Origin: Callorhinchus milii
Lineage: Eukaryota
Assembly: GCF_018977255.1 (NCBI RefSeq)
Contig: NW_024704742.1
Coordinates: forward strand, 67,334,001 to 67,398,000
Reading direction: 5' to 3'
DNA: 64,000 nucleotides
Below, piece after piece: positions 3,547 to 55,850 of this stretch. The notes under the pieces were generated by a model. It ran no database searches. It was not told the origin of the DNA and saw only the letters and a program-made list of their open reading frames with translations. The position numbers and the translations under genes were made by a program. Numbering within the stretch: position 1 is the stretch's first letter; each line of letters starts with the position of its first letter.

Positions 3547-3687
3547 CTTGTGATTTGAGTTCATAATCCCATCATGGAGTTCAGAACCCACAATTTTTTT
3601 AATAATAACAATAATCCTTCATTTGATATAGCGACTTATCAGGTCTTTGAGACATTTCAAAGCACTTCATAGAATATACTGTAAAGT

Positions 3688-3784
3688 TCTGACTAAAGGT
3701 CATTGACCTGAAACGTTAATTCACTTTCCTCTCTCCAAAGGTGCTGCTTAACCTACTGAGTGTTCCCAGCAACTTCTGTTTTTG
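3688..3784 (+). mobile_element. Short Penelope-like insert with minimal hammerhead-ribozyme-like motif, nested in a SINE
   Basis: 11-bp TSD tactgtaaagt (3677-3687 and 3785-3795); CTGACTA-aaggtcattgacct-GAAACGTT motif; similar to 35347-35445. Confidence 0.75.
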
Positions 3785-4269
3785 TACTGTAAAGTGAATT
3801 GACTGTATATTTTGTAGACTAAACATAGGCGTGAGACCTACCAACTGAGCCCTTGTTGACAACACTGATCTCGAGGCTAAGATCAGGGGAAATTCTGGGC
3901 CTCGAGTCTTTGAATATTCAGAAACAGTAACAAAAGCACATTGAGGCTTTCTGGCACTCTGAGCTCTATCCCTCTGGGTTAGCCCTGCACACAATAGTCA
4001 AGATGTAATAGCAGCAATTAATAATGAGGTCCATTGTGAAGAAAGAGGATGATCCAGCGCATAAATTCTCCAAGCTCTGGGACACAAATTATGTCAGTCC
4101 AGTCCCTCACATCCTGCTCACTGCACATATATCTCCACACTCAATCAAGACAATTTCACTCACTGAGTGAGCACAGCTTCACGACTGATTATCTCCACAT
4201 GTTAACCTTGGCCCGAATTCTCTTCCTAATGCTCGTCTGGGTCCACAAAGGCAATATTTTTCATGGCCC

Positions 4270-4670
4270 AAGAAGATTGTGGGTTCAGTCCCCATGTGGG
4301 GACTTGGAATCATGTAGTCTAACCAGACGCTCCAAGGCAGTGCTGCGGCTGTGTTGCATTGTCGGATCTGCCGTCCTTTGGATGAGAAGTTAAACCGAGG
4401 TCCCGTCTGCCTGTCCAGATGGACATTGAAGATCCCATGATACTATTCGAAAAGAGGAGGGAGTTTCTCCCAGTGTCCTGACCAATAATCTCCAAATAAA
4501 ATTGGTCACTCATTCCAGGGTGTATGTGGGACACTGCTGTGTCCAACTGGCTGCCACGTTTCACCCACAAAATACACTGTCAAACCACTTTGCAGTATAT
4601 CTTGTGAAGTGTTTTGAGATGTCTCAACAATGTGATCAAGTGCTGTATTAAATGCAAGGATTATTATAAG
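4270..4670 (+). mobile_element. SINE family A
   Basis: Same core and tail as 3094-3546. Confidence 0.85.
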
Positions 4671-4701
4671 GGAGCGGGCAGTGAGCAGGAGAATAATGAG
4701 C

Positions 4702-5046
4702 ATAATAATAATAATAATCCTTGCATTTGATATAGCGCCTTATCACATCTTCAAGATGTCTCAAAGCTCTTTACAAAATATACGGTAAAGTGAATTGACT
4801 GTATATTTTCTGGACGAAACGGGGTAGCCAACTGTGCACAACAGTGTCCCACAACCAGTCATTTCTTTTTATTACCCCAGAAAAGAGATCTGCCAATCGA
4901 TTAACAACTGGGTTCCTACTTACTGCAAGGTAAATAGAGGCGTCTGGATTATGGAAACTTGCCTGACGTTTTGCCCTGTCCATGAATCAAACCCAGGTCC
5001 TCTCGCTTGCAAGGCGAGTGCTCTAAACAATACACTACAGGACTCC
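4702..5046 (-). mobile_element. SINE family B, full length
   Basis: (AAT)n...ccttgcatttgatatagcgcc tail through tcgcttgcaaggcgagtgctcta...ctacaggactcc head. Confidence 0.85.
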
Positions 5047-7049
5047 ACAATGCTACAGGTTTATATAGAGATAAACATGGAGAATGTAGGCAGCCTGCTT
5101 CTATGCTGTAACATTCCAGGATTCATAACGTGAAGTACGGTACCATGGAATGATTGCATTTTGGCAGATGGTTTCATTTTGTGTTGGGTTTCGGATGCTG
5201 TCGTAGGAGGACAGTGGGGTGAGTATTCTTGAAGGATGAGATCAAATGGCCTTCTTCATCCACACTTCTGTGTAGCTTTTCTGTTCAGATCAAGGTTCCA
5301 GACAGCAAACCTCAAGCTATCTTCCTCTTCCAGATCTTTGCCTTCAGTCACTCTTTGGAATTCTCTCCCCAAAATCCATTTGATTTGTGCCTTTTCGCTC
5401 TCCATCCGAAAACCTCTTCAGAATTTTCCTCTTTGACTGTGTCTTTGGTCAACACAATACCTTTGGATTCCCTCTCCTCTCTGCTCAGTGACCCCCGTAA
5501 TTCCATCAACTCTGACCTGCCTCACAACCTTCCCCCATTTCCCCGTCTCTGTCCCCGCAGAGTCCTTCTGCCCCATTACCTACAGCCGAGCTGTCAGCCT
5601 CTTTGCCCTCGCTTTCTGGAACTCTCTCTCAAAATTCCTCTGCCTCGCTCCCTCCCTCTTTGACTATGCCTTTGATCACCTCCCTTCTCACTTTTCCCAA
5701 GCTCAAACCCACTTTCTGACTTGCATCTCATCCCTTTAAAGCCCTTTTTCTTCCCCTTGTATTTGATTTAACAATTTAATACCTTATCACATCGTCAAAA
5801 GTCTTGGGTCATGAGTCTTACTAGAAAGTAAGCATGTATTTGTAGGTAAGCACTGTAGCCAATTTACACAGCAATGACCCTCAAGCAGTCATGAAGTGAA
5901 TGACTGATTTTATCTGGGGGATTTTGCGGGCAGGAAACTGGGAGGGAGAGAAACTCCCTTCTCTTTTCGAATAGTGCCATGGGATCTTTAACAACCATTT
6001 GAATCCACTTGAACAGGCAAGCACACAGTCGCAGCATTTTAGACTGTATCCTGTGAAGCACTTTCGGATGTCGTCCCAATGTGAAAAGCACAATAACAAA
6101 GTACGAATTACTGTTCTCATTATTATCATGTCATTTAGATCAAGATTCCTGGTGTAGTGTCTTCAGCCACTATGCCCGAGGCTCTGGAATTCCCTTCCTC
6201 ATTCCCTTCACCTCGCCCCCTCTCTTCCTATTTTCAGGTCTCGGCTGAAGACCTTTCTTTTCGACCACGCCTTTAGTCATCTTTCCCCCTCCCCTTGGCT
6301 CGCCCCTGGGATCCGTTACTGTAAAGCGCTCTGAGACGCCGTCCAGGGTGGAGGGCGCTATATAAATCCAAGTTGGTGTTGTTGTGGACCACAACCCTCG
6401 AACATTACTGAACCTTCTTGTTTCGCCTCCCGGTGTCGTTGACTGGTGCTGGTGAGGGCAGTTGTAATGAATACATTGCGAGGTGGCAAAAGGCAATGCA
6501 CACAGTTCTGGTGTTTGGCAATGCCTGGAAACAAAGGCTTTTGGGAAATAGTGCAGTCAGAATTTTCACACTGTTGTTCCAGTGTAAGCTCATTCCAGCC
6601 TCTGTTTTGCACATAGGCTTTGATGCACTTTTCCTAAAAACCCAGCAGTGATCATTTTTCAGTGTTATTTTGCAGGAAGCGCATTATACTTTACTTTAGG
6701 TTTTATTGCACAGTTGGGGCAGGGAAGCAGGGGTTCGGGCAGATGGCAAGAGAAAGAATGGAAGCAGTGTGGTAAAATCTTAGAAAGTTAGCCAATAGCA
6801 AAAGACATTCTGTGCTATTGAATGAGCATCAACCAAATCAAGTTCAAGAATGGAGTGAAGGAATATAAAGCCATTAAAGTGGGGCAAAGGTCAAGTTACT
6901 GTCCTTTACGCCCTGTAAGAGCCACAGATGATTGTTACTGTGAGAACGAACTGTGATAAATTGCTCATAATCATTATAACAGACGCTGGACTCATTCTGA
7001 GATGATGTCATTGGGAAACGGTAACTTTGTGCTACGGGCCAGCTGCACA

Positions 7050-7430
7050 TTAATAATAATGATGATAATAATAACCCTTGCATTTGATAAAGCACCTTAG
7101 CATTTTGTTAAGACGTCTCAAAACGCTTCACAGAATATATTGTAAAGTGTAGTAACTGTATTTTGTGTGCAAAATGTGATAGCCAATTATGCACAGCATT
7201 ATCTCACAAACAGTCGTGGAGTGAGTAACCAAAAAAAAATTTCGGAGGGATTATTACCCCCAAAAAGTGATGCACTAATTGACTTACAACCGAGTTCCTA
7301 CTTACTGCTGGGTAAATAAAGGTGTGTGGAGTAAGGAAACTTGCCTAAGGTTTTGCCAAGCCCGGGACTCAAACCTGGATCCTCTCGCTTGCAAGACAAA
7401 CAGCACTAACCACTACACTACGGGACTCCA
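7050..7430 (-). mobile_element. SINE family B, full length
   Basis: Same head, middle and tail as 4702-5046. Confidence 0.85.
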
Positions 7431-8067
7431 CAAGCACGGATTAATAGGCACAGAGACTGGAGAACAAGTGCAGTGGCACGGTTTGGGAAAGGTTCCAGGA
7501 GGTGAATTGAGTTAAGACTCAGACAGATTCCCATAGTTCAGGGAGTGAAAAAAATCTCGTAAACGTTTGTGCAGAAAGAAGATTCTCAGACACACAGAGC
7601 GATTCAAACCCACCAACCCCTTCATAGAAAATCCAGAGTGCCTTTTTTTTGTTATATATATATTTGTATGTGAAACTATTTTATCTGGGCTGTTTCAACT
7701 GTGAGGTGCAGTGTCTGGTTTATAGCAAGCCTCTTTGGTGGGAATAGCCACCCGCGGGAAGGGAGAGCCAGTACTTTGCGAGTTCTTAGGGGAGAAAAAA
7801 GTGTAGGATCGGAGGAAAAGCCAAGAGAATTGACAGGTTCTAAAAATACGGTGCTTTGAGATGGTTCATTTACATTTCAGAACATTGTTTATCCAGCAAG
7901 AGGGAAACCAAGAGGAGCAAGTAGCCTGCTCAACCTCCACGAATGAGGAACTCTAAACTAATGGGCTGCAGTACGACTGACAAAGACAGAAACACATTTT
8001 TGTGATCTGAGTTCCTTTGACTTTGATATTGCGAAAGATGCAGATTAATTCCCCCACCCCTTCTCTT

Positions 8068-8430
8068 GGAGCCTGCAGTGTTTTAGTTAGAGTGCTCGCC
8101 TGGCAAGTGAAAGGACCCGGGTTTGATTCCTGGACAGGATGAGTGAATCCTTAGGCAACTTTCCTTACTCTACATGCCTCTGCTTACCTAGCAGTAAGTA
8201 GGAACTTGTTAGTTAGTCGATTGGTGGATTTCTTTCCAGGGGTAATAATCCCTCCAAAAAAAATTAGTTACTCAATCCATAACTGTTTGTGGGTCACTGC
8301 TGTGCGCAATTGGCTGCTCTTGCATTTCACTCACAATATAAACAGTCAATTCACTTTACAGTATGTTCTGTGACGTACTTTGAGACATCTGAACAACATA
8401 TAAAGCGCTTTATCAAATCCCAAGAATTAT
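8068..8430 (+). mobile_element. SINE family B
   Basis: ggagcctgcag...gggtttgattcc...ccttaggcaactttccttactc...cactttacagta. Confidence 0.8.
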
Positions 8431-9344
8431 TCTTCTCCTCCGCTGCCCTCCCCAACACCTCCTGCAAAGCCTATGGAAGAACTTCTTGACACTAACAAGA
8501 GTTTATATGTCTCAAAGAACTTCTCAAACTAGGCTGACACTCCATTGCAGTGCTGGAGGCCGCTGTAATGCCAGAGGTGCCGTCATTCGGATGAGACTTT
8601 AAACCAAGGTCTCGTCTGTGCCTGTTCAGGTGGGACAGGTGCACTTTATGTTCCCACAGCATTGCTCAAAAAGAGAAGGGAGATTCTCCTGGTGTCATGG
8701 CCAACAAATTCCACCCCCGCGCCCCCTCCCCCCACCCCTTCCCAGATAAAACTTAGTCATTCACGACATCACTGCTTGCGGGACTTTATTGTGAGAGGTT
8801 ATGGATTAATGCCGATCATCATAATAATAATTATAATCCTTGCATTTGATATAGTACTTTATCATGTCATTGAGACGTCTCAAAGCCCTTCACAGAATAT
8901 ATTGTAAAATTAATTGACTGTGTATTTTGTGGGCGAAATGTATATTTTATTGACTGGGCATGTCAATGGTGAGGTAACCAATGTCATTGTTTGGAGAACA
9001 ATGATATACACCCATGTGAAAGATTACAAGAGCCGTCCAGTTGCTTTGTAAAATACATCTTATCTGGGAAATAAACATACCACGCTGTGAGACTAAACAA
9101 TAGTGTAGTACTGTACATAAGTTGTAGTGTGATTGTTGCTGGCACCGTTTCCACATAACTAATGAAACCATTAAAGCGGCAAAGCAAACTATCGTGGAAC
9201 AGTGCTGGCGTGCTTTGTAGACTAAAAAGCACTGCCCTTTGAAGTGTCATTTATTATTCAGGATTACAACCAGCTACTTCAAACACAGGGTTCACAACGT
9301 TCAAAACCATTTCCTGCCTGAGCGCCAAACATTTCCTCCTTCTG

Positions 9345-13369: not shown

Positions 13370-14010
13370 CATGTCAGCCGGGCTCAGTCAATAGCATGCT
13401 TACCTCCGAGTCACAAGGTTGAGAGTTCAAGTCCCATGGTGACTTTGTCTCACATGGTCTCGGCCGATGCTCCAGTGTAGTGCTGGGGGTGGTGTGGCAT
13501 TGTCGGAGGCGCCGTCCTTTGAATGAGACGTTAAACCAAGTCCCATCTGCCTGTTCAAGTGGATGTAAAAGTTAATACTAATAATAATCCTTGCATTTGA
13601 TATAGCGCTTTTCACATCTTCTAGAAGTCTCAAAGCGCTTCACAGAATATACTGTAAAGTGAATTGACTGTATATTTGTGGGCAAAACGCAGCAGCCAAT
13701 TGCGCACAACAGCGTCCCACAATTGAAGTGACCAAATTATTTTTTTTTCTTGAGGGATTATTATTAGGCGTGATATAAGATCTCATGACACTACTCAAAA
13801 AGAGAAAGAAATCTCTCCTGGGGTCCGGCCAACAAATCCCCACATAAAACTGGTCATTCACTGCATGGCTGTTTGTGGAATGTTGCTGTGCATAATTCGG
13901 GTACTGCTCGTCTAAACAATACAATCAGTACTTTACAGTATATCCTGTAAATGTGATGTGAAATGCGCTTTATGAAATAGAAGGATTATTATTAATTATT
14001 ATTATTATTA
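13370..14010 (+). mobile_element. SINE family A interrupted by an antisense family B 3' fragment (about 13575-13770)
   Basis: Head at 13371; the Deu core breaks after ggatgtaaaag and resumes at taagatctcatg. Confidence 0.75.
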
Positions 14011-14640: not shown

Positions 14641-15547
14641 GCACAGAAGGAGGCCAACAGCTATTCTATCTGGTCTTCTGTGCTTCTGTTGCTGTCCCCC
14701 CACCACCTCCATCTCCTCTAATTTCCATTTGCCTTCACATTCCCATGCTCCTTAATGGTATTTAATTTCAACCATGTGTCGAGTTCCCTTTAGAATAGTG
14801 TTGTGAGAGTCACGTGAAACAGCTCTGGGGAGTTAATATCGCACCTAATACCCTGGTCTTTCAACGATTTGTTAAAAGAAAATTACTTTTTCTGTCCCTC
14901 TCAGCGATGACAATGTAAGCTTCCATTTCTTTTTTCAAAACAAACAATCTACTGGGGACAACATTTCTTTCTACTCAGCTCCTGTTAACCCTGCAAGCCA
15001 AAGCCCTAGCAAGTAGGGTGGTCCTAGCTGGCCAAGCAGAAGTCTCAACAACATGATAAGTCACTATATAAAATGCCAGGTTTATTATTATTTATCCACA
15101 CTGATTAATATCCTTACTTACTCCTTACTCTTTAATATACTTACTTCCGAAGTATCAGCCTAATTCACTTTCAAACAACCCAATTGATTTTGTCATTCCA
15201 GCCTTCTGGGGAAGTGCATTCCACGTTATAACAATAAACAATCCTTGCATCTGATAAAGTGCCTTTCACATCAGGAGGATATCGCAAAGCATTTCATAGT
15301 AATTTACTGTAAAGTTGGTGACTGTGTACATATTATGTGAACACAACAGCCAATTTGCACACAGCAATGACCCACAAGAATAATAATAATCCTTGCATTT
15401 GATATAGATCCTTACCACATTGTCAAGACTTTCAAAGTGCTTCACAGGATAAACTGTAAAGTGAATGATTAACTTTATCTGGAGATTGTTGACTAGGACA
15501 CCGGGAGAAACGTTTTCTGATTTCACTGCTAACTATCCTACAAGAAC

Positions 15548-17329: not shown

Positions 17330-17706
17330 GGCATCCTGTAGCTCAGTGGCTAGAGTGCTCACCTCGCAAGCAAGAGACCTGGGTTTGATTCCCGGGCAGG
17401 GCGAAATGTTGAGCAAATTTCTTTACTCCACACGCCTCTGTTTACCTAGCAGTAAATAGGAACCTGGTTGTTAGACGATTGGCAGATCACTTTTCCAGTG
17501 ATAATAATCCTTCCAAAAAAAATAATAATTTGGTCACTCAATCGACATCTGTTTGTGGGACACTGCTGTGCGCAATTGACTGCCATGTTTCGCCCACGAA
17601 TATACAGTCAATTCACTTTACAGTATATGCTGTAAAGCACTTTGAGACATCTCGAAGATGTGAAACAGGCTATATCAAAATGCAAGGATTATTATTATTA
17701 TTATTA
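17330..17706 (+). mobile_element. SINE family B, full length
   Basis: A box tagctcagtgg, B box ggtttgattcc, CORE-like segment, Deu 3' segment, (ATT)n tail. Confidence 0.88.
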
Positions 17707-22010: not shown

Positions 22011-22394
22011 GATATCAAATGCAAGGATTGTTATTATTATTATATTACCTCTCACATCGGCTCCACTTTGTTTCCACAACTGACTTCTCCTTCAGCCCCC
22101 GCACGTCTCGTGCGGTGTTCCTCAGGGCCATGTCCTCGGTCCTCTCCTCTTCAATCTGGACAAGGAGTCTGTAGTTCAGTGATGAGTGCACTCGCCTTGC
22201 AAACAAGAGACCTGGGTTTGATTACCGGCAGAGTAAAATCTTGGGCAAGTTTCCTTACTTCACACGCCTGATAATAATCCCTCAAGAAAAAAAAACAATA
22301 ATAATTTGGTCATTTTCAATCCACGACTGTTTATGGTGCACTGCTCTTTGTCGTGGATTGAATGTTTCTTGGGACGTCCTCCCGACATGAAAGG

Positions 22395-23215: not shown

Positions 23216-24889
23216 TATTGTATTCTATTTGTTTCATGGCTATTTGTGGGAAATTGTTGCGTTCAAATTGGCTAATGCACTCGCCTCCTAAATAAATGGG
23301 CACTACACTCTACAGTATATTCACAGTATACCGACTGTGAATTGCTTTGAGATATCCTCCTGACATGAAATGCAGGATTTCAAATGTAAGGATTATCATT
23401 AAATTCAAGGTCTATTTGCCTGCTCTGATGACTCGAGTAGACATTTAAAGATTCCCCTGAGATTATTCTCTTCGACTGTGCATTTCGTCACCCTCCTAGC
23501 CCCATCCTCACTGCCCTCCACCCTTCCTGATCCCAACTACCAGCTCGGGTACAAATCCTTGACTGTCCAGCTATAGATGCTATACAAATGTAATTTGTTG
23601 TTGTTATTATTCTGTTTTGGAGAAGGGTGAGGGATTTCCCAGTGTCCTGGCTAATATTCCTCCCTCTTCCAAATTCTGCAAAAAAAAATCCTAAGAATAA
23701 ATTGCAGAGCATGGAAAAATGGCAGGTAAAAGGCAGCTCCTTAAAAAGAGCCAGCGCAGACACAATGGTCTTCTGTGCTGCAAATGTTTATGGTTCTTTC
23801 TAAGATTAACTGGTCATTCATCTCCTTGTTGTCTAAGTGCTCTGAGGGGCTACCCTGTGTGAAGGGCATTAAAAATGTTATCGTTGCTTACGGGCCATTG
23901 CGGTACATATTAGCTCCCATGTTTAGCTACGTAACAGCAGTCACCACACTTCAAGTAGCTCAGTCTGTAAAACATTCTGAAATGTTTGTGACATAATAAA
24001 CATTATATCAAGAATACAGGATGCAAACCCAGAACAATGCATTCAGATATATAAAGGAAGTAAATAATAAATAATAATAGTAAGCTTTAATTTGGTGTAG
24101 CATCTTTCACATCAAGAAGGCATATTAAAGTGCTTCACTGGACTTACTGTAAAGCAGAGTGACGATACAATACAAAATTACATTTGTATAACGCCTTTCA
24201 CGTTGGACCCGATCAGGGAGGGTGGAGAGCAGGAAGGTGGCCGAAGGCGCGGTCGAAGAAGAAGTCTTGAGACGTGGTTTGAAAGAGGCAAGGGAGGGAG
24301 GAAGCGAAGCAAAGGAAATGTGGGATGGAGTTCCAAAAGGTGGGAGTAGATAGGCTGAAGGCTCAACCGCTGATGGTGGGCCGGGCAGGGACACGGAGCA
24401 GGCCAGACTATGTATTGTAGACTCATTTGGACTATGACTTGCAGTGTCAGAGGGAGGTGAATGGGAAGTCTTGCCCCCAGTGAATGGTCTGCCCTTCCAA
24501 GTCCTGCCGATGAGCCAGACTGCCTGTGCTGTCATCAACAGTCCCTGTAGTACTTTGGAGCGGGATTCTAGGAAAGTGTTCCATTGAGCAGTTGTAGAAT
24601 ATCTGAAGACTTGTTCATTGATAGTGGGGTGGATTGGGCAGGGGAACATGAAGCAGGCTGCTGTTTGCTAAGCAGATAGAGTGTCTGGAACGGTAGGGTC
24701 ATAGGAGATTGGAACCATGGGGAGAGTCTGTCCCCATGTACAATGACTATCCAGCACCTTGGAATGTTGGAATGTCCTCCTGATGTGAAAGGCGCTATGC
24801 AAATGTAATTTTGTTGTTGTTGGGCGTTCCCGAAAAATGAGATTAAATGCATGAAGGATATTCCTCATCCAAACCTTTCCTGCGTTAAT

Positions 24890-25216: not shown

Positions 25217-26669
25217 TTTATCTTGTGATCCCTCTCAGCCACAGCTCTTTCACTCCATCGAAAAAAATGCAACACACCATAAGTTCTGAACAAAGCAATG
25301 GTTTTATTTCAATTTCTTTGGTACATTACGAACTTTACAATTCATATATTTCCGATTCCAAAATAGACTGCGTGATTGAAACCTTGTTGATTTTGACAAA
25401 AACCCGAGAGAGCAGACTAGGTATTGCATGAGTTAATAATGTAAAGACTGGCTGAAAACTGGGAGCAGCGAAACTTGAGAGAAAGATGATGTCATTGACA
25501 GCAGGACTAAATAATACTTAAGCTTGTACCATGGTTTTCCAGAGTGAGGTGAACATTGGATCACAAGAAGTTATGAAACTTTGGCAGGGGGGGTTGTGGG
25601 AATGTCATGGGAGGCAGGCTTAATAATAATAGTAATATAATGCTTACATTTGATATAGCATCTATCAAGTGAGGCGGACGCCTTAAAGCGCTTCACAGGA
25701 TATACTGTAAAGTGGGTGACAGTGTATTTTGCAGGCTACACTGAAACTATAGAGATATAGGAGTTATACACAAAGCATGAGTACTTTCATCCAACAGCTT
25801 GTTATTATAGAGCACATAGGCTCTTCTCTGTATTGCAGTCCTTGGGAAAGGCCAGTTTATTATTGTTAGATACATTTGTGCAAAGAGAATGCTGGGCACA
25901 CAAAAGGAATCCTAGTGCACTGGAGGACTATAATGCTAATCTATTGATTGGAGGGTTTTGATGGAGTAGCATACTGCAGGTGTCAGGCATGTCTCAGACA
26001 CACCCCAGACATTGTACAGTACAACCTTTGAGTCACATTTGGTTTAGAAAATGGAAAATCGACTTTGTACTTCGGGATCTCAACTGAGAGAAAACTGTTG
26101 ACTTACATGTACAAAAACAACAACGTTTATCCATATTGCGCCCTTCATTTCTCCACTGCAGCCGGGCATGTTTAACACCGCAGTGTGAGGGCCTTAATTT
26201 ATTTCACACATAAAATAAGAGAGCTACTTGTGCATTCGTTGCCGCTGAACTTTTCCTTGTCTAATGTTACAAACGTGATTGTTTCATGATGTTTCCGTCC
26301 ATTAGCCTAGCTCTGTCAGTCTTTCAGTGAAGCTCTTTATCCCAGGGCTTATTGTCTCTTGTATGATTGCACTCCTGAGAGAGTGATCAGCGGGTGTCCA
26401 ACGAATGCAGAACCCCATCATCATGCTTAAGAGTATCCGAACCAAATATCCCACCTACACATGGAAATTCCAGAGATAAATTTCTGGAATAGAATGTGCA
26501 CTCTCTCCCTAGAGAGATGCATCCTGATTTCCTAATTTCTAAATGTATTAAGTGCACATTGGCAACAGACAAGTCTTGGGGACCCCAGAGTGTGTGTTGG
26601 GTTGGAGTCTAACAACAACAACTAACCAGCTAAAACTTCAGTAAGTAATAGCTTATGTTTTCTGAAAGT

Positions 26670-27230
26670 AATGACTAAATATTTTACAGGCAAACACAGC
26701 AGCCAATTTGCACACAGCACTGTTTCACAAAGTGAAGGATCAATTTTAATCGAGGGATTATTTGTCAGAACTCTGGGAGAAAATCTCTTGTTGAATAGTA
26801 TGGTGGGATTTTTAACATCCATCCGGACAGAGAGACAAGCTATTGGGTTTAACATCTCATCCAAAGGATGGCACCTACGACAATGTAGCACTCCCCCAGC
26901 ACTGCACTGGAGTGTCAGCTCAATGTCTCGATGTGGGGCTTGAACCCACAACCCCATTTGAATCATGAAGTGAATGCCAGGTTTTATCTCAGGGATTGTT
27001 GGCCAGAACAGCGGGAGAAACTCCCTTCTCTTTTCAATTAGTGCCTTGAGATCTTTATCATCAAGCAGATGGGATCTTGTCTCATCCAAAGGATGGCACC
27101 TCCAGTAGCACAGCACTCCCTGGAGCACTGCATTGGAGTGTCAGCCTCGGTTGAGTTCCAAGTCCTGGTGTGGCGCTCGAACCCACAAACTTTTGATTCA
27201 GAGGCAAGAGTGCTACCAACTGAGCCAGGA
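26670..27230 (-). mobile_element. Two tandem SINE family A fragments
   Basis: Repeated tctcatccaaaggatggcacct...cagcactgca core. Confidence 0.75.
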
Positions 27231-31189: not shown

Positions 31190-32795
31190 TTCAAATATGG
31201 AGGGCGTCTCAAAGTACTTCTCAGAATTTACTATAAAGTGCAGTGTTTGTATTTTGTAGATGAATACAACAGCCAATTTGCACACAGGAAGAATAATGAT
31301 AAAATTGATAATAATCCTTGCATTTGATACAGCACCTTATCATGAATGAATGTCTCACAAACATAAAATGAATGAGCAATTTTGTTAGGGGGATTATTGG
31401 CCAGTACATCAGGAGAAACTCCATTCTCTTTCCGCCTAGTACCATGGAATCTTTAAGGTCCACGTGAACAGGCAGATGGGTTCAACATCTCATCCGAAAG
31501 ATAACAACTCCAACAATGTAACACACAACATCAGAGTGTCAGCCTGGACTATATGAGTTCAATATCCCAGCATGGGGCTTGAAACCACAAACTTCTGACT
31601 CAAAGGCAAGCGTGCTACTAACTGATTCCAAACTGATTCCTTCACAGGTGGTGTTTATATACCACATGGGCCTCCTCCATCCTAACCCCTTCTTCCTATC
31701 CACCTCCCACACCCTCTGTTCCCTTCTCCCTCCCGTCTGCAAAAAGGAAGAAAATTATAGGATGTAAGCTGTTACTCAAGATAATAATAATAATCCTTGC
31801 ATTTGACATAATGTAATAACATAACATGTAGGAGCAGGAGTAGACCATTCGGCCCTTCGAGCCTGCCCCGCCATTCAATTATGCTGATCTTCTAATCTAA
31901 CTCCAGCTAATAACATAACCCTGCCTCATCCCCATATCCCTTAAACCCTTTTACAATAAGAAATATATCTATCTCAGTCTTTAATATGTTTGATATAATC
32001 CTTGCATTTGCTATAACGTCTTATCATGTCGTTGAGACATCTCGAAGCAATTCACAGAATATTGTAAAGTGAATTGACTGTATTTTGTGGACAAAACGCA
32101 GCAGCCAATTGCGCACAGCAGTGCACCACAAAAAGTCATGGATTGAGTCACCACATTTTTGTGTCGGGGGGTGGGGGGATTATTATCCCTGGAATGCAAT
32201 CCGCTAATCGACTAACAACCAGGTTTCTAGTTACTGCTAGGTAAATAGAGGCACGTGGAGTAATGAAACTTGCCAAAAAAGGTTTTGCCCTGCACGGGAA
32301 TCGAACCCGGGATTTGGACCCATAAGCTTCTGATCCATGGGCAAGACACTGAGGTTTGGGGTGCAGTAGCTGAAGGCTTGGCCAAAAAGCTCTTAGAATT
32401 TTAGAGTTCATAACTCTGATCTGTCAGGTTTTAAGTACGTGAGGGTTTTTTGGGGGTGTCAGCCTCTTACAGAAATCCATCAACTCAAGAGTATCCAAAT
32501 CACAGTTTCACATAATAATATTTTTTCCATCCTTTGTAGCGCCTTGCATATCGGGAGGACATCCCAAAGCGCTGCACAGGATACAATATGAAGTGGAGTG
32601 ACTGTGTATTTGTGGGCAAATGCATCAGCCAATTTGTGCACAGCAATGTTCCACAAACAACCCATGAAATGAATAACCAATCTTATTTGGGGGAATGTTG
32701 GCCTGTCTTTTCAAATAGTGCCATGAGATCTTTAACATCCACCTGAACAGGCAGACAGGACCTCAGTTTAATGTCTCAACTGAAGGACGGCACCA
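31190..32795 (-). mobile_element. Cluster: SINE A (31190-31640), CR1 3' end (31825-31990), SINE B (31995-32320), SINE A (32510-32795)
   Basis: Family motifs as above; CR1 end taggagcaggagtagaccattcggccc. Confidence 0.75.
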
Positions 32796-33160: not shown

Positions 33161-34539
33161 GGCTGGTCAGCTACAACTACTGAACAAAGGAAACAAGCTG
33201 TCAAAACTGATGAATAACGTCTTAATAAGTGCTTGAAAAGAGATGTTATCATTTGATGAGGTGATACAGCTATCAAGAAAGATTGGACAGGTTGGAGCTT
33301 TTCTCTCTGAAGTTGAGATGATTGTAATATATATATAATAATCCTTGCATTTGATAAAGCGCTTTATCATATCTTTGCGGCGTCTCAAAGAGCTTCACAG
33401 AATATACTGAAAAGTGAATTGACTGTATATATTGTGGGTGAAATGTGGCAGCAAATTGCGAACAGCAGTGTCCCACAGACAGTCATTATTATTATTATTA
33501 TTATTATTTTTGAGATTGAGGGGGGAGCTCATAGAGGGAGTTTAAGATTATGAAAGAATTTGACAAGGTGAATGTGAATAGGTTATTTCCACCTAGGGGT
33601 TGCTCATACACTTGCATTGTCCTGTTGCATTTCTTGATCAGTAAGTTGAGTCTTAGGGTGTAAAATAATACATGGAATTACATAGAACGCTGCAGCACAG
33701 AAAGAGTTTATTTGGCCCAACTAGTCAATGTCAGTGTTTATACTCCGCATGAGCCTCCACTCAGACTATTTCCCATTCCTATTCCCATTTCCCTCATGTA
33801 TGCATCACATTTCCTCTTCAATATGTTGATGTAGTTTTGTGTTGGTTCCAGTCCTCCATCAAAAAAGCATCACCTCTTTCCAGGTTATTTTTGCCTTGTG
33901 ATTTAATACATCCAGGCTTTGAGAGTAATGATTATTAGAGTAGGGAGACTATAAATTGATGACCTGCTAAGGATTTTAAGTTTTGCAATGATCAAATCTG
34001 GTCTTATTCTGCCTTGTGATCAATTTTCATTTTCTAATAGAGGAGACAGTGTAAGAGATGAAAGGTGGTATTAAGGTTTAATTTGGCAAAGTAATGAAAT
34101 GATTGTCTTCAAAGACAGGATTAGTTTAACACTCACGATAAGGGTTTTTGACTGATCCAAAGATAAACTCCTTTGTACTGCTGAGCATGCCTCTAATTTT
34201 GATGTTATGAAGATTTGCACCAAAAGTGCTGGTTGAACCTGCTCCTTACCATGTTTGAATCCAGAAGCAGAGAAAGCACTGTTCCTTAGTTATCGCTGAG
34301 GCAATGAGTGCTAGAGAAGGGAGTTTCTCTTGATGTTCTGGCCAAATGGAAAGAATCCCTGGATGCAGTATTTTAATAATAATAATAATCCTTGCATTTG
34401 ATTGAGCACCTTATTGCATCATTGAGACATCTTGACTTTTGACCAGGTTGATAGTGCTAAAGGCTAAGGAATAAGTCCAGATAGCACTTATTGTCTCTTG
34501 TTTAGGGGAAGGTAATCCAGGGCACTGAGATACTGTAAA

Positions 34540-34990: not shown

Positions 34991-35256
34991 CTGCTCAGCA
35001 CTTGCTAGTACTGTAGTTTGATTCTGCAACTGCAGAATTGCTGGCAGGCACACAGGGGGGTGATGCATTCATTCAATTACAAATTAAATAGATATCTTTC
35101 AGATAATAATATTTTGGGGATACAGTTCATGAATAATTTGAGACATAATATATAGTAAATGTAATATGCTTGGAACATTGTGTATAATATAAAATATATG
35201 CAATTGGCTACCATGCCTCACCCATAAAATATATAGTCAAATTCACTTTACAGTAA

Positions 35257-35448
35257 CAAAACACAAAATACTGCAGATGCTGGAAATCTGAAAACAAAAA
35301 CAGAAGTCACTGGGAACATTCAGCAGATCAGGCAGCATCTATGGACAGTTCTGATGAAGGATCGTGAACCCGAAATGTTGACTCACTTTCCTTTCTCCAT
35401 AGATGCTGCCTGACCTGCTGAGTGTTCTCAGCGACTTCTGTTTATATT
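35257..35448. mobile_element. Penelope-like insert with inverted arms and minimal hammerhead-ribozyme-like motif, nested in a SINE
   Basis: 15-bp TSD ttcac(t/g)ttacagtaa (35242-35256 and 35449-35463); inverted arms ~35299-35345 and ~35396-35443; agttCTGATGA...GAAAtgttgact at 35347-35383. Confidence 0.8.
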
Positions 35449-35904
35449 TTCACGTTACAGTAAATTCTGTGAAGCGTTTTAAGATGTCTCAATGAGGCGT
35501 AATATCAAATGCAAGGATTATTATTATTGTTATTATAAAGAATCAGTCAACTTTGGATCTATACTTCCTAAAGCTTTCCACTCTGTTTTAGACTAATCCA
35601 TACAGAATTAATTTCTATCAACATCTCCATTATTGTAGCATGCGACAACCAGAATAGTGGAAGGCAAACTAGATGGACCTTGGTCTTTTTTTGTCCAGCA
35701 ATTCCTATGTTACTATGCTTTTTCCCTGTTCACACAAGACAATGTTGGTCAAATTGATGACCTTCATTGTTCTTGCTGCGGGATTGGACATTCCCTCTCT
35801 GCATGACAGAGCTCTGATCTGAAGTGTTGTGAGACGCACATCCTGTTTCAAAAGTTACATCAAAAGCTCTCTGGAAGTGGAAATTTTTGTTGTTGTTGAA
35901 GACA

Positions 35905-40949: not shown

Positions 40950-41430
40950 TATATAATAATCCTTGCATTTGATTTAGCACCTTATCTCGTCATTAAGACA
41001 TCTCAAAGCGCTTCACAGAATATACTGTAAATAATAATAATAATAATAATCCTTGCATTTGATATAGCGCTTTTCACGTCGGGAGGACGTCCCAAAGCGC
41101 TTCACAGAACACACTGTAAAGTGAATTGACTGTATATTTGTGGGCGAAACGCGGCAGCCAATTGCGCACAGCAATAAGTGAATTGACTGTATTTTGTGGG
41201 TGAAACGCACACATACAGTCGGGAATTGAGTGACCATTTCTTTTTAAGGGATTATTACTCCCAGAACTCGATCTTCCATTTGACTAACAACCAGGTTCCG
41301 AATTACTGCTAGGTAAACAGAGGCGTGTGGTGTTAAGGAAACTTGGCTAATGTTTCGTCCTGCCTGGGAATCAAATCCGGGTTCTCTTCCCTGCAAAGCA
41401 AATGCTCTAACCAACATGCTAAAGTATCTA
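40950..41430 (-). mobile_element. SINE family B with a younger SINE 3' fragment nested at about 41031-41174
   Basis: Host breaks at tactgtaa and resumes aagtgaattg; the insert has a different tail variant (cacgtcgggaggacgtcccaaagcgc). Confidence 0.8.
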
Positions 41431-45345: not shown

Positions 45346-46429
45346 AGCCAGAATAATTTAATGCTCCACTTTTACTGCAGAGCTTACCTGGATTTGATGC
45401 AGTAAAACTCAGTCAGAAGCAATCTCACCTCTAACTCTTTGAAGCAAGCTATGTGGTTTTAGCTGGTTAGACTCCAGCAGTTACCCCAATGTGCACTATG
45501 ACGTCCCCAAGACTTGGCTCTAGACAACCTGCGCCTAATACCTTCTGGAATTAGGTAAGCAGGATGCATCCCTCCAGGGAGAGAGTGCACATTCCATTTC
45601 AATAATCTATCTCTGGGATTATCCCGGCTGACCCCAAAAAACATTTGATGCAGTTCTACATAGAATCGACACACAGAGGGTCGTTGGAATCTTACCAATG
45701 GGCTCGGCAGCACTTTAACTTTGTTTTATTGTAGTTGATACAAAGGATAATTTTTAAGAACAGAGTTGCATATTTATACTCTTTTATCACAGCAAAAGAT
45801 CTCAAAAGTGTTCACAAGTAATTACTGTCAAGTGGAGAGAATATTTTTCTAGGCAATCACTTGTGCCAGCAAAGTCCCACAAGCAGTCATGAGATGAATG
45901 GCCAATTAATCTGGAAGATTGTTAGTCAAGACACCAGGGGAATCTCCATTTTCTTTTCAAATAGTGCCGTGGGATCTTTACCTCATCTGAACAGGCAGAC
46001 GGGAAGGTATTATTATTATTGATTAATATAATATGATACAATACCATCTGAAAGATAGGAACTCTAACAAGGCAGCACTCCCCCAGCACTGCACTGAAAT
46101 GTCGACCGAGTCTGCGAGCTCAAATCCTGACTTAAATCCAGAGAAGTATAGAACTTTACAGGACAGAAGGCCATTCGGCCCATCGTGCCTGTGCCGGCTC
46201 TTTGAAAGAGCAGTACAGTCCCATTTACCTGTCTTTTCATTATATTCCCGCCTTTCCCAGATGCATGCCAAAAGTGCAGGCAGTGATGTCAGCTGTGACC
46301 ATTTGTGCTTCCTGTGCGCTGGATTTGTGTTGTTGTTGTTGTGAGCAAGGGCAGCACACAGGAAGTGATGTCACAGCAGCCATGTTGGCAACATGCCCTG
46401 CTGTTACTTTCTGAATTGGGTTTTATGGA

Positions 46430-47680: not shown

Positions 47681-47699
47681 CCCTAGTCGCCTGCCTCTA

Positions 47700-49045
47700 G
47701 TCACTGACAATGGAAACAATCTCTGACCAGGTGATCTCTCAGAATCCTTTATCATTGTAAAGACAATCAGGACTCACTTGAACCTTCCCGTTTCATTGAA
47801 AATAAGCCCGGTTCCTCCAGTTTCTGCTCATAACCAGAAGTCCCTCAACTGCTTCTGCTCGTCCCTAGTATTGTATCATCCTAGTAAATCTCCTCCGTAG
47901 CCTTTCTATGGTCCTAACTCTCTTCCTAAAGTAGGGTGACCCAAACTGGACACTGACATTAACTGAAGCCTAACTAACAATTTGTACAAATTAAGCATCA
48001 CCACTTTTGGTTTTATATTAGGACTATAAGATTACTATAAGATTATTTTTGAAAAAAAAAGATGGCCCTTGCCTCTGAAATGGGGAAAGCAGGAAGAAAA
48101 AAGACATGATGAGAAATGAAGTGAACGTTAGAAATAAATTGAGAGAGAAAATGTCAAGAGTAGGTAGAGAAGGGGTTGAATTGGAAGGAAATAGTTACAA
48201 AGAGACACAGAAACAGAAAGGATAAAAAGATGACACAGTACAGGCAAAATGTTTTAGTGCTTTATTTCTACTTCCACTCGTACTGTCTGTATTGACATGA
48301 GTTGACCTGGTTAATATTAATCCATGCAATAATAATAATCCTTGCATTTGAGACGTCTCAAAGAGCTTCACAGAATATAATGTAAAGTGAATTGACTATA
48401 TTTTGTGGGCGAAATGCAGCAGCCAACTGCACACAGCAGTGTCCCACAAACAGTCGTGGATTGAGTGACCAAAAATTATTATTATAGTTATAGTTAATAT
48501 TATAGTAATAACACTATTTCTGATGTTTGAGCAGTTTTAGCCCTTATAACATTTGCGCTTCCATACACATGTCGAGCTATCAGTGACTCAGCTTGGGTTC
48601 GATCAGTCTCCAGAGATAATGATTCAAGGGGATCTCATAGAAATGTACAACATTTTAAATGGGATTAAAAAAGTAAACCCAGATCAATACTTTAGAATGC
48701 AACAAGACAGTAGAACAAGAGGACGCAGGTTAAGAATTGTAAAGGGCAATTTCAGGACAGATACCAGGAAGATATTTTTACTAAGAGGGCAATTAACGAC
48801 TGAAACAAATTGCCAAGAAAGGTGATAGAGGCAAGGACACTGGACTAATTTTAAAAAAAATCTTGATGCTGGATAGGGGATGGCTGGGGATTGTTCTGGA
48901 GGGATAAGATCAGATTGGATAGTTAACTGAGGAAAGGGCAGATAAATGGCTCTGAAAGGGCTTGCTGTTAAAAGAGCCAGCACATGCACGATGAGCGGTA
49001 TGACCTTTTCATGTGTTGTAAATTTCTATGGTTTTATGGTTTCTA
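47700..49045. mobile_element. CR1 fragments (47700-48010 minus; 48620-49045 plus) with a SINE tail at 48325-48480
   Basis: GDLIEMYNILNG..KV...RTRG..L.I.K..FRTD.RK.F CR1 C-terminal motif. Confidence 0.75.
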
Positions 49046-50551: not shown

Positions 50552-50836
50552 GGATCACTTCAACCTTGTACGTCGCATTTATCTCTCCAGCTCGGTTATA
50601 CACTCGGCAGGTGTACTTTCCACTGTCTCCTGGCTTTACGTTCTTCAGGGTCAAGGTCCATTTCTTCTTCTTGGCTTCCCCTGCGTCCTGAAGGGCCAGT
50701 GGCCTGCCGTCCTTGAGCCAGGTGATATTGGGCTGTGGGTGCCCGCCCGCGGCGCACTTCAGGCGGACAGAGCTGCCCACAGGCCGGGCTATCACCCTGC
50801 GACGCATTTTGGTGGGCTGTGTAAACCTGGGTCTGA
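50552..50836 (-). CDS. FGFRL1: FGFRL1 exon, Ig-like domain 2 (285 nt, phase 1-1)
   Basis: [28 protein letters not shown]...[25 protein letters not shown]; polypyrimidine tract with ctgtag acceptor and gtaagt donor; contains the basic KMRRR motif. Confidence 0.97.
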
Positions 50837-51039
50837 CTACAGTCACCAAAGAGAGAGAAAAAAAAGGTTCACTCTGATGGTGGTGGTGTGGAGGAGGGAG
50901 ATGTGTGGGGTAGAAAGATAAAAAGGAGTCTGCACTTGCCTGTTGAGACACTCATCCTCCAAACTTATTCAATATCCTTTTGAATTCAATCCTTACCTTG
51001 TGTTCCTTACACTCCGTCTCTCGCTACACTTTATTCAAA

Positions 51040-51350
51040 CAATAATTTTGGGATGCACCAGGACAGTAGGACAAGAGGTCTTTGGTTTAAGAGTTGAGAA
51101 GGTCAATTTCAGGACAGACACCAGGAAGCTTTTAATTAATGGATAATTAACGACTGTTCCATCTCTTTGAGCAATTAAACTTGAAATTAAGAAGACAGAT
51201 ATTTGCCAGGAAAGGTGGTTGAGACCAAGAGACAGGACTCATTTCAAAAGCAGCTTGATGCTGTGATGGGTTGATGGAAGGGAGGGTACTCTGGAAGGAT
51301 GAGATCAGATGGGCCGAAGGGCCTTCTTCATCCAACCTGATCTCATGATT
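51040..51350 (+). mobile_element. CR1 3' fragment
   Basis: caatttcaggacagacaccaggaag shared with the copy near 48750; gatgggccgaagggcct tail motif. Confidence 0.7.
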
Positions 51351-53434
51351 TTGTGTTAAAATTGTTACTTTTGTATTTTAATTAACAGAGGATTGGTTTG
51401 GAGGGCAGGGTGTTTTTTCTCTCCTTTCTCCTTCGAAACATCTCAAAGCGCTTCACAGGGCTCACCCACTGCAAGCCCCACCCCTCTCCCCCACACTCCC
51501 CTTCACCTCCTCCATCCTGAGGAGCTCAGATAATTAGATAATTTCATCAGATAACGTTTAAAGATTGCACAGAATTGTGGAAAATTCTTGAATTCATTCT
51601 TACTTCAGAGGATGTTAAGTGAATGTAGCTGAACGCAGCCGCCAATGTGCATACAGCAATGCCCTAGAAACAGCATTGAAGTGAATGACCAATTTTATAA
51701 TAATAATAATCCTTACATTTGATATAATGCCTTTTCACATCATTGAGAGGTCTCAAAGCTTCACAGAATATATTGTAAAGGTATTATTAACATATTTTAT
51801 TATTATATTATTAATATATTGTAAAGTTATTATTATTATCTGGAGGGTTGTTGGCCAGAACATTATAAACAAATGCCCTTCTCTTTTTGAATAGTGCCAC
51901 GGGATCTTGAACATCCGCCTGAACAAATAGACAGGACCTCGGTTCATCGTCTCATTCAAAGAACGGCACCTCCAGCAATGCGGAGATCTCACATTACTGC
52001 TCTGGACCTTGGCTACAGGCTCAAAGCCCCAACATAGGACTCAAACCTGTGACCTTCTAACCCAGAGGTCCAAGTGCTACCAACTAAGCCAGATTCACTC
52101 CCTGTCAGATCTTACATGTTATTCACATGAGAGCCTTGACAGTGCAGAGTCTTGACACACAGGCATCCATGTCTACCCTGACTTGACTGTCAAAATTCTG
52201 CTTGGACATCAATATCAATTTCAACTTCCAGACTGCGGTCAAAGGAGGCTACTCCTGCCGGCAGGATATAGGCTCCCCAGCAGAGCTTCCAATCTACAAT
52301 TTACAAATCCTTTTGCAAATCATCGGCCAATATCTCTCTGTATATCCATCCCCATTAGTAAACCTGACCGACTGTTTCCCACAGATTTTGTTACCAAAGA
52401 CTCTAACAGAACCCTTGTGTTTTACAGAATATCCAGTCACACTTAACGTTTGTTAATTTCATAGTACATCATTAATGCCTTTCACCATTTTAAAATCTTC
52501 GATGAAAGCAAGTTCACCTCTTAATAACATAACTCTGCAAGCCAACACCCTAACAGGCAGGGTGGGTATGCAGCGGGAGGCTTGCCAGGCAGTGTTTGCA
52601 ATGTCAAACGATCTGGTTGATTAAACATTAGAAATATGTCCCAATGCATACTCTGGGGTTCCCCAATCCATTGACACTTGCCATCTTGCACTTAAACTCT
52701 CCAGGATTAGGTAACCAAGGTGCTTTCCTCTGGAGAGAGGGTTGCTGGAAGGTGTTACCTGGAGTCCAAGTTCATAAACAGATGTCTGTACATCCAGCGC
52801 CTGGAATTCACTAATTGGAGATGCGGAACTGCTTAACGTCCGCATCTCCAATTAATGAAACCATCGTTCAGTGGAAAGGGATGTGTGTCCAAGCTGTGCG
52901 CAGGAAGATGCTGGCAATGCTCTCAAGCATTCATGCTGAGCTGTACTGCCCACCAGAAAAATAGCAGGCTGTTCCTGGTACCTACCGTCCACCTAATCAG
53001 TTATCAAATGACCAACTAGTGACTATCCTACTTGGAAAGGTAATAAGTAGGGTTTCCTTGGTGCTGAACTGGCTCCAAGGTGACATGCTTGGTAACGAAA
53101 TGTCAGAATCAAGCCAACCCTCTGCGGTGGTCTTGCTAATCCAGTTCCTGAGATAACCGGGTCCGCAGTATTATGGGCACTGCTGATGACAGCACAGCCA
53201 GCCTGGCTCATCAGCAGATCCTGGAAAGGCAGACCAGTCACTGGGGGAAGGGAGTCTTCCCATTCAGCAACCATTAACCTTGCAAGCCAAAGTCCTAATG
53301 GCTAGGATGGTCTTAGCTGGACAAGCATTCGGAAAGCTTGCCAGACAGTGTTTTCAGTGCCAAGTTGGATTCCAGAAGCACACCAATACACACTCTAGAT
53401 TCTTGTCAAACTGCATTTAATACTCTCCAGTATA

Positions 53435-54420
53435 CTTGATCTCTCTCTTGCCTTCGATAACCGTTGACTACTCCATCCTCCTCCACTGCCTCTCCTCTCA
53501 CCTCAACCTTCATGGTTCTGTCCTTGAATGGTTCAGATCCTACCTCTCACACCGTCTCCACTTTGCCTCCACAAATGGCTTCTCCTCCAGGCCAAGCATA
53601 ATATCGTGTGGCATTCCTCAGGGCTCTGTCCTTGGTCCTCTCCTCTTGAACTTGTACATGCTCCTCTCTACCTCTCTGACCTGCTTACCTCCTACACATA
53701 ACCCGCTGCCTTTACTCGACCGGCTCCGGCCTTCTGCATGTCCATCATGCCCTCCGTTCCACCATTGGTGACCGTGCTTTTAGCTACAACGCCCCAAAAC
53801 TCTGGAACATTCTTCCTCTATGCCTCTGCCTTTCCACTTCCTTTCCCATCTTTAGAATGCGACTGAAGACCTTCCTATTCGACCATGCCAGCGGTCACCT
53901 CCCATTCCCCCCGGGGTCGTGCTCCACTACTGTCAAGTGGTCTGGCACGCTGCTCTGAGTGAGGGTTGCTATATAAATGCAAGTTGTTCTTGTTGTTGCT
54001 CCCTCTTAGTGACATCACCCGCAGACATGGGGTCAAATTCCACATGCATTCGGATGACACCGATCTCTATTTCTCTGCCTCCACGCTCGACTCCAGAATC
54101 ACTGCTGTCCTAACAGGATGTCTGTCAGACATCAAGTCCTAACTGAGAGCTAACTTTCTACAGTTGAATGTCAACAAGATCGAGGCTCTCCTGATTGGCT
54201 CCCGTCAGTGCCTCCTCACCTCAGACACTGTCAGCATCACCATCCACGGTTGCACACTCAACCTTACTAAGTCAGCCCAGAACTTTGGGGTCTTGTTTGA
54301 CCCTCAACTATCCTTTCTACCCAACATTTGTGCCATGACCCACTCTGCCTTCCCCACCTCCGCAACATCGGCTGGCTCCGCCACTGTCTCACACCGTAGG
54401 CAGCCAAAACCCTCATCCAT
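53435..54420 (+). mobile_element. L2 fragment with a nested L2 3' end (about 53665-53998)
   Basis: GIPQGSVLGPLLLNLYML is interrupted and resumes ctccctcttagtgacatcacccgcagacatgggg. Confidence 0.8.
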
Positions 54421-55147
54421 TTGACAAGGTTCCACATAATAATCCTTGCACATGTGAGACTTTTAAAGATTAAGGGTTACAGCTTGGGAGTGCGATCCCC
54501 GGGGCTCATTCGGAATCCAAAAATTTGAGAATTTTGATACCCCAAATCCCAGGATCCCGAATCTTACCTCGTCCAGGACGCCCATGGTCATTCTCCACAG
54601 AGTCAGGAGGTTTAAACGCCCGCTCCAACCAGATCGTCCTCATGATAATATGTGGCCAAGATCCGTCCTCCGCATCCACCCAGACTTAGCCTTTATATAT
54701 TCCCCAAATCCCGGGATTCTCCTCAATGAATCCCAGGTTTTGGGAGCACCATTATCACATAGGATCCCAGGATCCCATATTAAATGTAATTTATCCAATT
54801 GGATTAAAAAAACATTATAGTAGCAGGACCTCCTGTAGAATGTACATGTCGTCACAATCAGGGTTCAATATTGATGTTTGAACTCTTGTATTTGAGACTG
54901 CTGCAAGCTCATTCTGTATTTATATCAGTAGGAGGTTATGTTTCTCACTGCGATCAGTCCCGCTTAATCTCCATCAGTTGTTATGAGCTTCGCCTCACAA
55001 CAAACACACCATTTTAGATATCCATGTAGCCTCACAATTATCTAATTACAAAGGCCGACACGGGGACTGCAAGCCTTGGCGCATACGGCTCAGTTCTCTT
55101 TTTTCTTTAGACAACACTGCAACATTTTATAACTGAAAGTATCGTAC

Positions 55148-55237
55148 CCCATTGCTTCCCTGCAGAGTCCTCACTGGTACGTTCTCCATCAAATCCTTCA
55201 GGTAGTATTCCGCTCTCCCTTCCTGTGCTTGAATCAT
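55148..55237 (-). CDS. FGFRL1: FGFRL1 internal exon, acidic linker between Ig1 and Ig2 (90 nt, phase 1-1)
   Basis: Not in the ORF track. Minus strand reads ttccag|AT GAT TCA AGC...AAG CAA TGG G|gtacga = (D)DSSTGRESGILPEGFDGERTSEDSAGKQW(V), matching the DD..S...ED.A.QQW linker exon of vertebrate FGFRL1 and joining in frame to the Ig2 exon. Confidence 0.9.
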
Positions 55238-55324
55238 CTGGAACGATATGAAGCAATGGCCCACATTAGTGGAAAAAGACTCTCTTTTTCTTCTGGAGAC
55301 ATATTAGTTTTGCATAGACATGTT

Positions 55325-55850
55325 TAGGTTCTTAGTCGATTGGTGAATCGCTTTTCAGGGGTAGTAATCCCTCCAAAAAAAATTATAATAATTAGGTCAC
55401 TCAATCCACCACTGTGCATAATTTGCTGCTGAATTTTGCCCACAAAATGTACAGTCAATTCACTTTAATAATCCTTGCATAATCCTTGCATTTGATATAG
55501 CGCTTTTCACATCGGGAGGACGTCCCAAAGCGCTTCACAGAACACACTGTAAAGTGAATTGACTGTATATTTGTGGGCGAACGCGCAGCCAATTGCGCAC
55601 AGCAATGTTCCACAAAAAGTCATAGATTGAAAATGACCAATTTATTATTGTTTTTGTTTTTGGAGGGATTATTATTAGGCTCTGTGTGGAGTAAGGAAAC
55701 TTGCCCAAGGTTTCGCCCTGCCTGGAATTGAACTCAGGTCTCTCGCTTGCAAACCGAGTGCTCTAACCACTGAGCTACAGGACTCCACTTTACAGTATAT
55801 TCTGTGAAGGACATTGAGACATTTCAATGACATGATAAGGTGCTATATCA
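55325..55850 (+). mobile_element. SINE family B (5'-truncated) hosting an antisense family B copy at 55468-55785 that retains both head and tail
   Basis: 7-bp TSD cacttta at 55461-55467 and 55786-55792. Confidence 0.85.

Follow-up and report, generated by a model that had tools for sequence, protein, structure and literature searches.

In a 64,000-nt stretch of the Callorhinchus milii genome (contig NW_024704742.1, positions 67,334,001 to 67,398,000; hereafter the window), four insertions lie in a single 14-nt motif within the 3' region of a short interspersed element (SINE), at consensus positions 281-294. Based on their sequence features, two of the inserts (a and b) are stubs of Penelope-like elements (PLEs), and the other two (c and d) are younger SINEs. 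The four insertions are independent of one another. The account that we consider probable is that two unrelated machineries with loose AT preferences placed four independent insertions in one AT-rich SINE patch, and that no single dedicated target is involved. The motif is probably a modest local hotspot of a known kind. A preliminary description of the window had reported four insertions in one SINE site of about 15 bp, and all the junctions it named were found where it had placed them (Table 1).

The window is repeat-dense, with a GC content of 44.6%. Profiles built from copies in the window define two tRNA-headed SINE families with only their 3' ~190 positions in common (profiles A and B overlap solely at B203-396), and tRNA heads were located by Rfam at 55713-55784, 58014-58089 and 17335-17401. 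L2-type long interspersed element (LINE) pieces are also present, and their ends match the SINE tail. With two mismatches or fewer the motif occurs 32 times in the window against an expectation of 0.71, because it belongs to the SINE 3' region, which is present in 54 of the 67 SINE copies. The labels 'Deu-type' and 'L2-type' are presumptive, drawn from general knowledge plus the description in PMC5499810, and are to be taken as likely only. The two families are likely the CmiSINEs (SINE2-1_CM/2B-1_CM) and SacSINE1-CM of Callorhinchus milii, for which the available part of PMC5499810 gives a common 3' portion of ~160-200 bp, an L2-2_CM tail and copy numbers of 302,861 and 218,294. The likeness lies in two tRNA-headed families, a 3' part alone in common, an L2-like tail and a very high copy number, and the match is to this published description rather than at the sequence level.

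Two Penelope-like stubs and two SINEs in one motif

Both Penelope-type inserts duplicate the motif, with target site duplications (TSDs) of 11 bp (exact) and 15 bp (one mismatch), and in both a T-rich element end abuts the host within one base, as the preliminary description had it: TTTTTG meets tactgtaaagt in a, and GTGTTTTG meets ttactgtaaagt in b. Since the T-rich ends meet the host within one base, the two nicks would lie 1 nt apart on the same strand. Insert a is one tail-less arm; insert b is made of two head-to-head arms, one of which carries a tail of ~40 nt. Over 53 nt the direct arm of b shares 88.7% identity with the inverted arm, and it is 80.4% identical to stub a. A minimal hammerhead (motif defined in the available text of PMC4209133) was read by pattern in both stubs, where the core, helix II and GAAAC-GU are present but mutated; with the majority letters from public contigs, helix II is fully paired. 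Whole-strand folding did not recover the hammerhead fold, and Rfam at its gathering threshold returned tRNA heads only, and no hammerhead, in the window. Two more relaxed matches to the hammerhead core, at 48927 (+) and 28933 (-), are unrelated to the PLE family and may be due to chance. No third PLE copy was found in the window, leaving two PLE loci, nor does the window hold a PLE-linked copy of an open reading frame with a reverse transcriptase (RT) of telomerase-like type and a GIY-YIG endonuclease.

The stubs resemble endonuclease-positive (EN+) PLEs in being 5'-truncated, in the inverted partner arm, in the optional 30-40-nt tail on one end, in the minimal hammerhead, in their AT-rich targets and in their variable TSDs. 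The available parts of PMC3846280 and PMC8557442 count inverted partners and a 30-40-nt tail, the latter optional, among the standard features of PLEs. The TSDs here are 11-15 bp long, whereas those of the Adineta examples, in the excerpts at hand, are 8-10 bp. The accessible portions of PMC11167929, PMC3846280, PMC8557442 and PMC4209133 do not describe a SINE position that is used repeatedly.

From the observed junctions and TSDs we infer nick positions, strand roles and the enzymes involved. The PLE stubs probably arose by target-primed reverse transcription at AT-rich nicks. Priming of the PLE 3' end would take place at a nick in the sense strand after CAGTA(A), with the short start used in a and the tailed start in b. 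A second nick, 11-15 bp away in the opposite strand, would define the TSD; in b it would also serve to prime the second, inverted arm. For the anole PLE PAc, the available text of PMC11167929 describes nicking and extension of both strands at AT-rich 5'-ATT sites, and a tail that corresponds to two RT start sites 30-40 nt apart.

Independence of the events, which the preliminary description had argued, is confirmed by several comparisons. Host a is not the nearest copy to host b: the score against a is higher for 23 of 37 other copies, and that against b for 11 of 37. The arm at the shared nick carries a hammerhead only in a and a tail only in b, and the TSDs of the two SINE inserts, c and d, measure 7 and 2 bp. 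A single SINE-PLE composite, amplified to give both PLE-containing SINEs, would account for the identical nick and orientation and for hosts that are both short fragments starting near consensus 238-254. This composite was rejected, and we regard it as extremely improbable, given the distant hosts, the unlike TSDs (11 vs 15 bp) and the lack of a single-deletion path from either insert to the other; a weak further point is that none of the contig pieces listed crosses either junction.

Insert c, with the TSD CACTTTA, and insert d, with only a 2-bp overlap, are younger SINEs in the motif, as had been reported; they are 99.2% identical to each other over 128 nt and 78-88% identical to their hosts. 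They were primed on opposite strands and at different positions. The L2-type piece at 57193 does lie close by, although at ~5 nt before the motif and not at the ~10 nt given earlier. At all five cleanly readable 3' junctions of the L2 machinery (c, d, the L2 piece and two others) the tail repeat is continued by 2-3 nt, with a background for (ATT)n microhomology of 22% across SINE-interior positions and 34% across those of the motif. These five junctions support the alternative that the preliminary description had itself raised, (ATT)n-tail microhomology, which is the better account of the SINE inserts. L2 elements can prime by 3' microhomology. The L2 machinery probably placed the two SINEs at nicks where 2 nt of the 3' end match the (ATT)n tail, as at the other AT-rich positions of these SINEs. 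The stagger of ZfL2-1 is short (~5 bp; available part of PMC4760211, on 5' junctions rather than 3' tail pairing), which fits the TSDs of 2-10 bp here.

PLE ends in public contigs

Four public runs contain 74-81% of the words sampled from a stretch of the window, and the runs X9 and X11 were taken from these; X1 and X6 are runs of other organisms with small shares, giving four runs from three organisms. Contigs of the four runs were compared with positions 35000-35512 at 80% likeness, and the counts that follow are of the contigs listed. The tailed PLE end is joined to a flank unlike 35000-35512 in at least 218+124 (342) contigs of X9, at least 231+145 (376) of X11, at least 294+351 (645) of X1 and at least 238 of X6. 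The consensus of the flanks at tailed PLE ends is A-rich, with an agreement of 0.37-0.42, and is not the motif. Contigs with a PLE at the SINE site should show a 1-nt gap at 35239; it is present in only 26-35 contigs per run, a count that takes in plain SINE pieces. The motif site's share of PLE ends has a crude ceiling of 5-10% by contigs and 12-45% by binned depth, and the depth at the right-hand junction is 1.5-1.9% of that at 35444. These ceilings exclude obligate targeting and leave room for a 10-30-fold enrichment over the uniform 0.13%.

Dedicated targeting by the PLE family as a whole is largely refuted by these data. The preliminary description had proposed the SINE as a safe landing site; the PLE, or a subfamily, would then recognise the SINE by its sequence. 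Both PLE loci of the window sit at one nick in one orientation, as such recognition would have it, and sequence-targeted PLEs exist, for example the ribosomal DNA (rDNA)-targeting PLE-X, as does a microsatellite bias (available text of PMC8557442). Against these stand the 238-645 or more PLE ends per run with non-motif flanks, the bounding of the motif site to a minority (at most 1.9% for the right junction type) and the other nicks used by the SINE and L2 inserts, so that we give the proposal very little credence. R2/Tx1-type elements are sequence-targeted retroelements. Elements of this class insert nearly always at one sequence, whereas most PLE ends here have unrelated flanks; the idea of a multicopy, harmless target is what the two have in common (rDNA PLE-X, as covered in the available part of PMC8557442).

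Tail-to-direct-arm joints dominate among the contig joints listed. None of the 15 joints listed runs from a PLE to the motif, and the expected empty-site joint is equally missing, hence this result has no evidential use. The unique flank at 35000-35053 has no cover in X1 and X6, and metagenome scans with a PLE 22-mer and with a SINE 24-mer found 0 loci each. In X9 and X11 the tailed PLE ends gather at 35255 and 35257, in X1 and X6 at 35255/35258 or 35258, which suggests that RT start points differ slightly, or that subfamilies differ, from one organism to another.

Chance, target geometry and folding

Nested events with both host sides visible number 11 in the window, four of them in the motif and seven outside it, the L2 piece among the seven. 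The motif makes up 5.7% of the 13,075 SINE-interior sites. When any 15-nt span may hold the cluster, p is 0.062 under a uniform model and 0.12-0.22 with AT weighting, and the nine non-PLE events alone give p=0.09-0.20. The excess of the four pooled events over chance is weak. The count of 11 leaves out two duplications, at 51767-51832 (no clean TSD) and 23312-23330, whose addition would favour the motif, and adjacent fragments lacking a visible second host side (5857-6136, 8519-8940, 11879, 22346, 26667-27229, 34313-34432 and 56985-57192), whose addition would mostly dilute it.

With the pooled scan at p=0.06-0.22 and the PLE pair, at one nick and in one orientation, at p=0.004-0.009 given that both lie in SINEs, the signal is the PLE pair and not all four events. 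The endonuclease-preferred target of the preliminary description is plausible for this pair; as one target for all four it is not supported, in view of the two machineries, the unlike nick positions, the use of both strands and the TSDs of 11/15 vs 7/2 bp. The pair could also be pure coincidence, the PLE having a general AT bias only, the position not being enriched genome-wide and the pair having been picked out by looking at many windows. The pooled scan, the mixed PLE flanks among the contigs listed and the strong selection that comes with 209 annotated windows of this genome agree with coincidence, whereas the pair has a probability of ~2-4e-4 per window under uniform or AT models, low even across ~200 windows, and we consider this explanation unlikely, although by no means negligible.

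Within the host patch, AATT and TATATT lie ~14 bp apart. A modest local PLE preference at the motif is likely because of these two AT-rich nickable motifs, and the motif site is probably a better-than-average PLE substrate, one of many. More tentatively, and with somewhat less than even confidence, the PLE endonuclease of this lineage may have a true two-nick geometry preference (AT-rich motifs on opposite strands, ~14 bp apart), of which the SINE 3' core would be a near-ideal copy; a few percent of PLE insertions, tens of times the uniform ~0.1%, would then fall on a single nucleotide, repeated in hundreds of thousands of SINE copies. A post hoc AT rule with two nicks matches the window at 576 sites, of which 24 are at consensus 292-297.

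The motif also lies within an imperfect palindrome, and structural exposure had been suggested as a cause. A hairpin or cruciform exposing the DNA to any retroelement nuclease would be in line with arms of 12 bp that match at 11 of 12 positions, with the highest share of significantly folding copies among four SINE windows (z<-2 in 12 of 39 copies; mean z -1.18, against -0.33, -0.45 and -0.80 for the others) and with five events (a-d and the L2 piece) inside 274-295. Fold energies are only -2 to -10 kcal/mol, however, with six of eight copies not significant and two clearly so, and six of the 11 events fall outside the palindrome. The PLE TSDs (284-294 and 281-295) are off-centre from the dyad at 283, and cruciform-symmetric cutting was rejected on this asymmetry of the cuts. 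The case for exposure is weak, and we think it highly improbable as the cause.

Several results weigh against the reading that we prefer, in which two machineries with loose AT preferences met in one patch. With the motif taken as a fixed span, P(>=4 of 11) is significant, at 0.0025 under the uniform model and 0.012-0.015 with AT weighting, and five of the 11 events fall within 21 nt (p=0.02-0.09). Two of the two PLE loci in the window share the nick to within one base and the orientation, and with the SINE share of 20% included the probability of the pair falls, by arithmetic, to ~2-4e-4, so that plain AT content under-explains it. The microhomology score of five out of five leaves aside three junctions with degenerate tails and one further event. 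The contig counts cover listed rows only, beyond which there are 349 joints, 1487 loose ends and 81,038 pieces, and in the ceilings repeats are collapsed in unitigs and gapped ends perhaps clipped, so that the share is bounded rather than measured. Finally, the two-nick rule was set after the data had been seen, and it predicts 30 sites at consensus 269-271, where the window has no PLE.

Position-specific hotspots of nested transposable elements (TEs) are the rule in the available part of Levy, Schwartz and Ast 2010 (PMC2836564), where two suboptimal nick sites spaced 15-16 nt, together with tail pairing, account for the Alu-in-Alu hotspot. Different TEs at preferred positions of an abundant host repeat, and the two-nick logic proposed here for the motif, are common to that work and ours; it drew on ~296,000 human events and the L1 machinery, whereas we have 11 events in 64 kb, the L2 machinery and a PLE, and a pooled peak that is not significant after scanning. 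Nested SINE hotspots are already known and the general phenomenon is ordinary, and AT-rich two-strand PLE cleavage with tails is known as well (available part of Frangieh 2024). A literature search, with subscription papers and Repbase reports outside its coverage, returned no report of PLE insertion at this particular SINE site. Nothing on target sites was found in the available parts of PMC3747384 and bioRxiv 10.64898/2026.07.22.740005, and 'nested', 'hairpin' and 'Penelope' have no match in the accessible main text of PMC5499810.

Should the PLE peak be borne out across the genome, insertions into a host of known consensus would show, in vivo, where PLEs nick, what geometry their TSDs have and how the two RT start sites are used; knowledge of PLE nicks and RT starts comes so far mainly from one in vitro system (PMC11167929, available text). 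It would also call for caution over the assumption of uniform insertion when these SINEs are dated by transposition-in-transposition. If the geometry preference is true, the site would be a natural in vivo footprint of first- and second-strand PLE cleavage with the pre-insertion sequence known. None of this is evidence for a new safe-harbour targeting system.

Features and other nested insertions

Table 1. Coordinates of the inserts, their hosts and duplications, and the other nested events in the window
Feature	Positions	Strand	Basis
Host SINE 3' part of insert a (consensus 284-371), ending in left TSD copy	3601..3687	-	SINE profiles
TSD copy 1 of insert a: TACTGTAAAGT, 11 bp, exact, 11/14 motif bases	3677..3687	.	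junction reading
PLE-like stub a (97 bp): one arm, which ends at the short (tail-less) 3' end and lies antisense to host SINE	3688..3784	+	
Decayed minimal hammerhead of stub a: core CTGACTA (T in place of conserved G8), helix II of 5 bp (GGTCA/TGACC-type stem), GAAAC-GTT	3689..3721	+	pattern match
TSD copy 2 of insert a; upstream host part runs on to ~3830	3785..3795	.	
Host SINE upstream part of insert b (consensus 239-295), ending in TSD copy 1 (35242-35256)	35199..35256	+	
Inverted PLE arm of insert b with ~40-nt 3' tail extension (35257-35297)	35257..35345	-	
Direct PLE arm of insert b with decayed minimal hammerhead (core 35351-35357, GAAA 35372-35375)	35346..35448	+	
TSD copy 2 of insert b, 15 bp with 1 mismatch; tail of host runs on to ~35530	35449..35463	.	
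Insert d: young 5'-truncated SINE, orientation as host (40953-41031 + 41176-41424), 2-bp overlap (AA), 2-nt tail microhomology	41032..41175	-	
Insert c: young full-length tRNA-headed SINE, antisense to host (55327-55467 + 55786-55853), TSD CACTTTA at 55461-55467 + 55786-55792, 2-nt tail microhomology	55468..55785	-	
L2-type LINE 3' fragment in SINE (57097-57192 + 57875-58088), break at consensus ~276, ~5 nt before motif, 2-nt microhomology with (GTT)n-type tail	57193..57874	+	
Uninterrupted target example: imperfect inverted repeat (consensus arms 263-274 / 292-303, centre 283) with motif at 56873-56886	56855..56895	+	motif matching and folding
Nested SINE outside motif (Deu-type host, position B~151)	13573..13772	-	
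Nested SINE tail outside motif (consensus ~219)	15379..15466	-	
Nested SINE tail outside motif (consensus ~231)	31291..31349	-	
(ATT)n-like filler in Deu-type SINE head (B~117), outside motif	46008..46039	+	
Nested SINE tail outside motif (consensus ~187); own 5' end stops in motif, local 20-bp duplication	51699..51835	-	
Nested SINE outside motif (consensus ~182), TSD ATTTTATTTG (10 bp), 3-nt tail microhomology	62916..63204	+	

Two of the events outside the motif lie 5 nt apart at another AT-rich spot. This second spot, at consensus 182-187 (62906-62915 / 63205-63214 and 51695-51699), has received two independent SINE insertions, a number equal to that of the SINE insertions in the motif.

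Several rearrangements were seen at SINE junctions. A near-exact 20-bp duplication (51767-51832) covers the end of the motif and the AT filler where a nested SINE tail is truncated on its 5' side. An 8-bp direct duplication in the motif without an insert (ACAGTATA, 23312-23330) could be a repaired staggered nick or slippage. The minus-strand, 5'-truncated SINE tails at 33333-33510, 48329-48510 and 51699-51835 have an (ATT)n-like run of opposite orientation at the 5' junction, as if the tail repeat had primed both target strands. A fold-back junction lies at 22310-22370, where a SINE runs into its own preceding ~19 nt in inverted form, after which comes a tail fragment fused to an L2 piece. The nested SINE tail at 15379-15478 has its 5' end joined to the host via ~8 nt of homology (the motif region against a similar host stretch), with a small target deletion.

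A SINE variant without ~60 bp after the head recurs at 55468-55785, 13575-13772, 22165-22346, 57875-58090 and 60092-60398. Identity between the 55468 copy and the 41032 tail is 99%, which points to a young subfamily.

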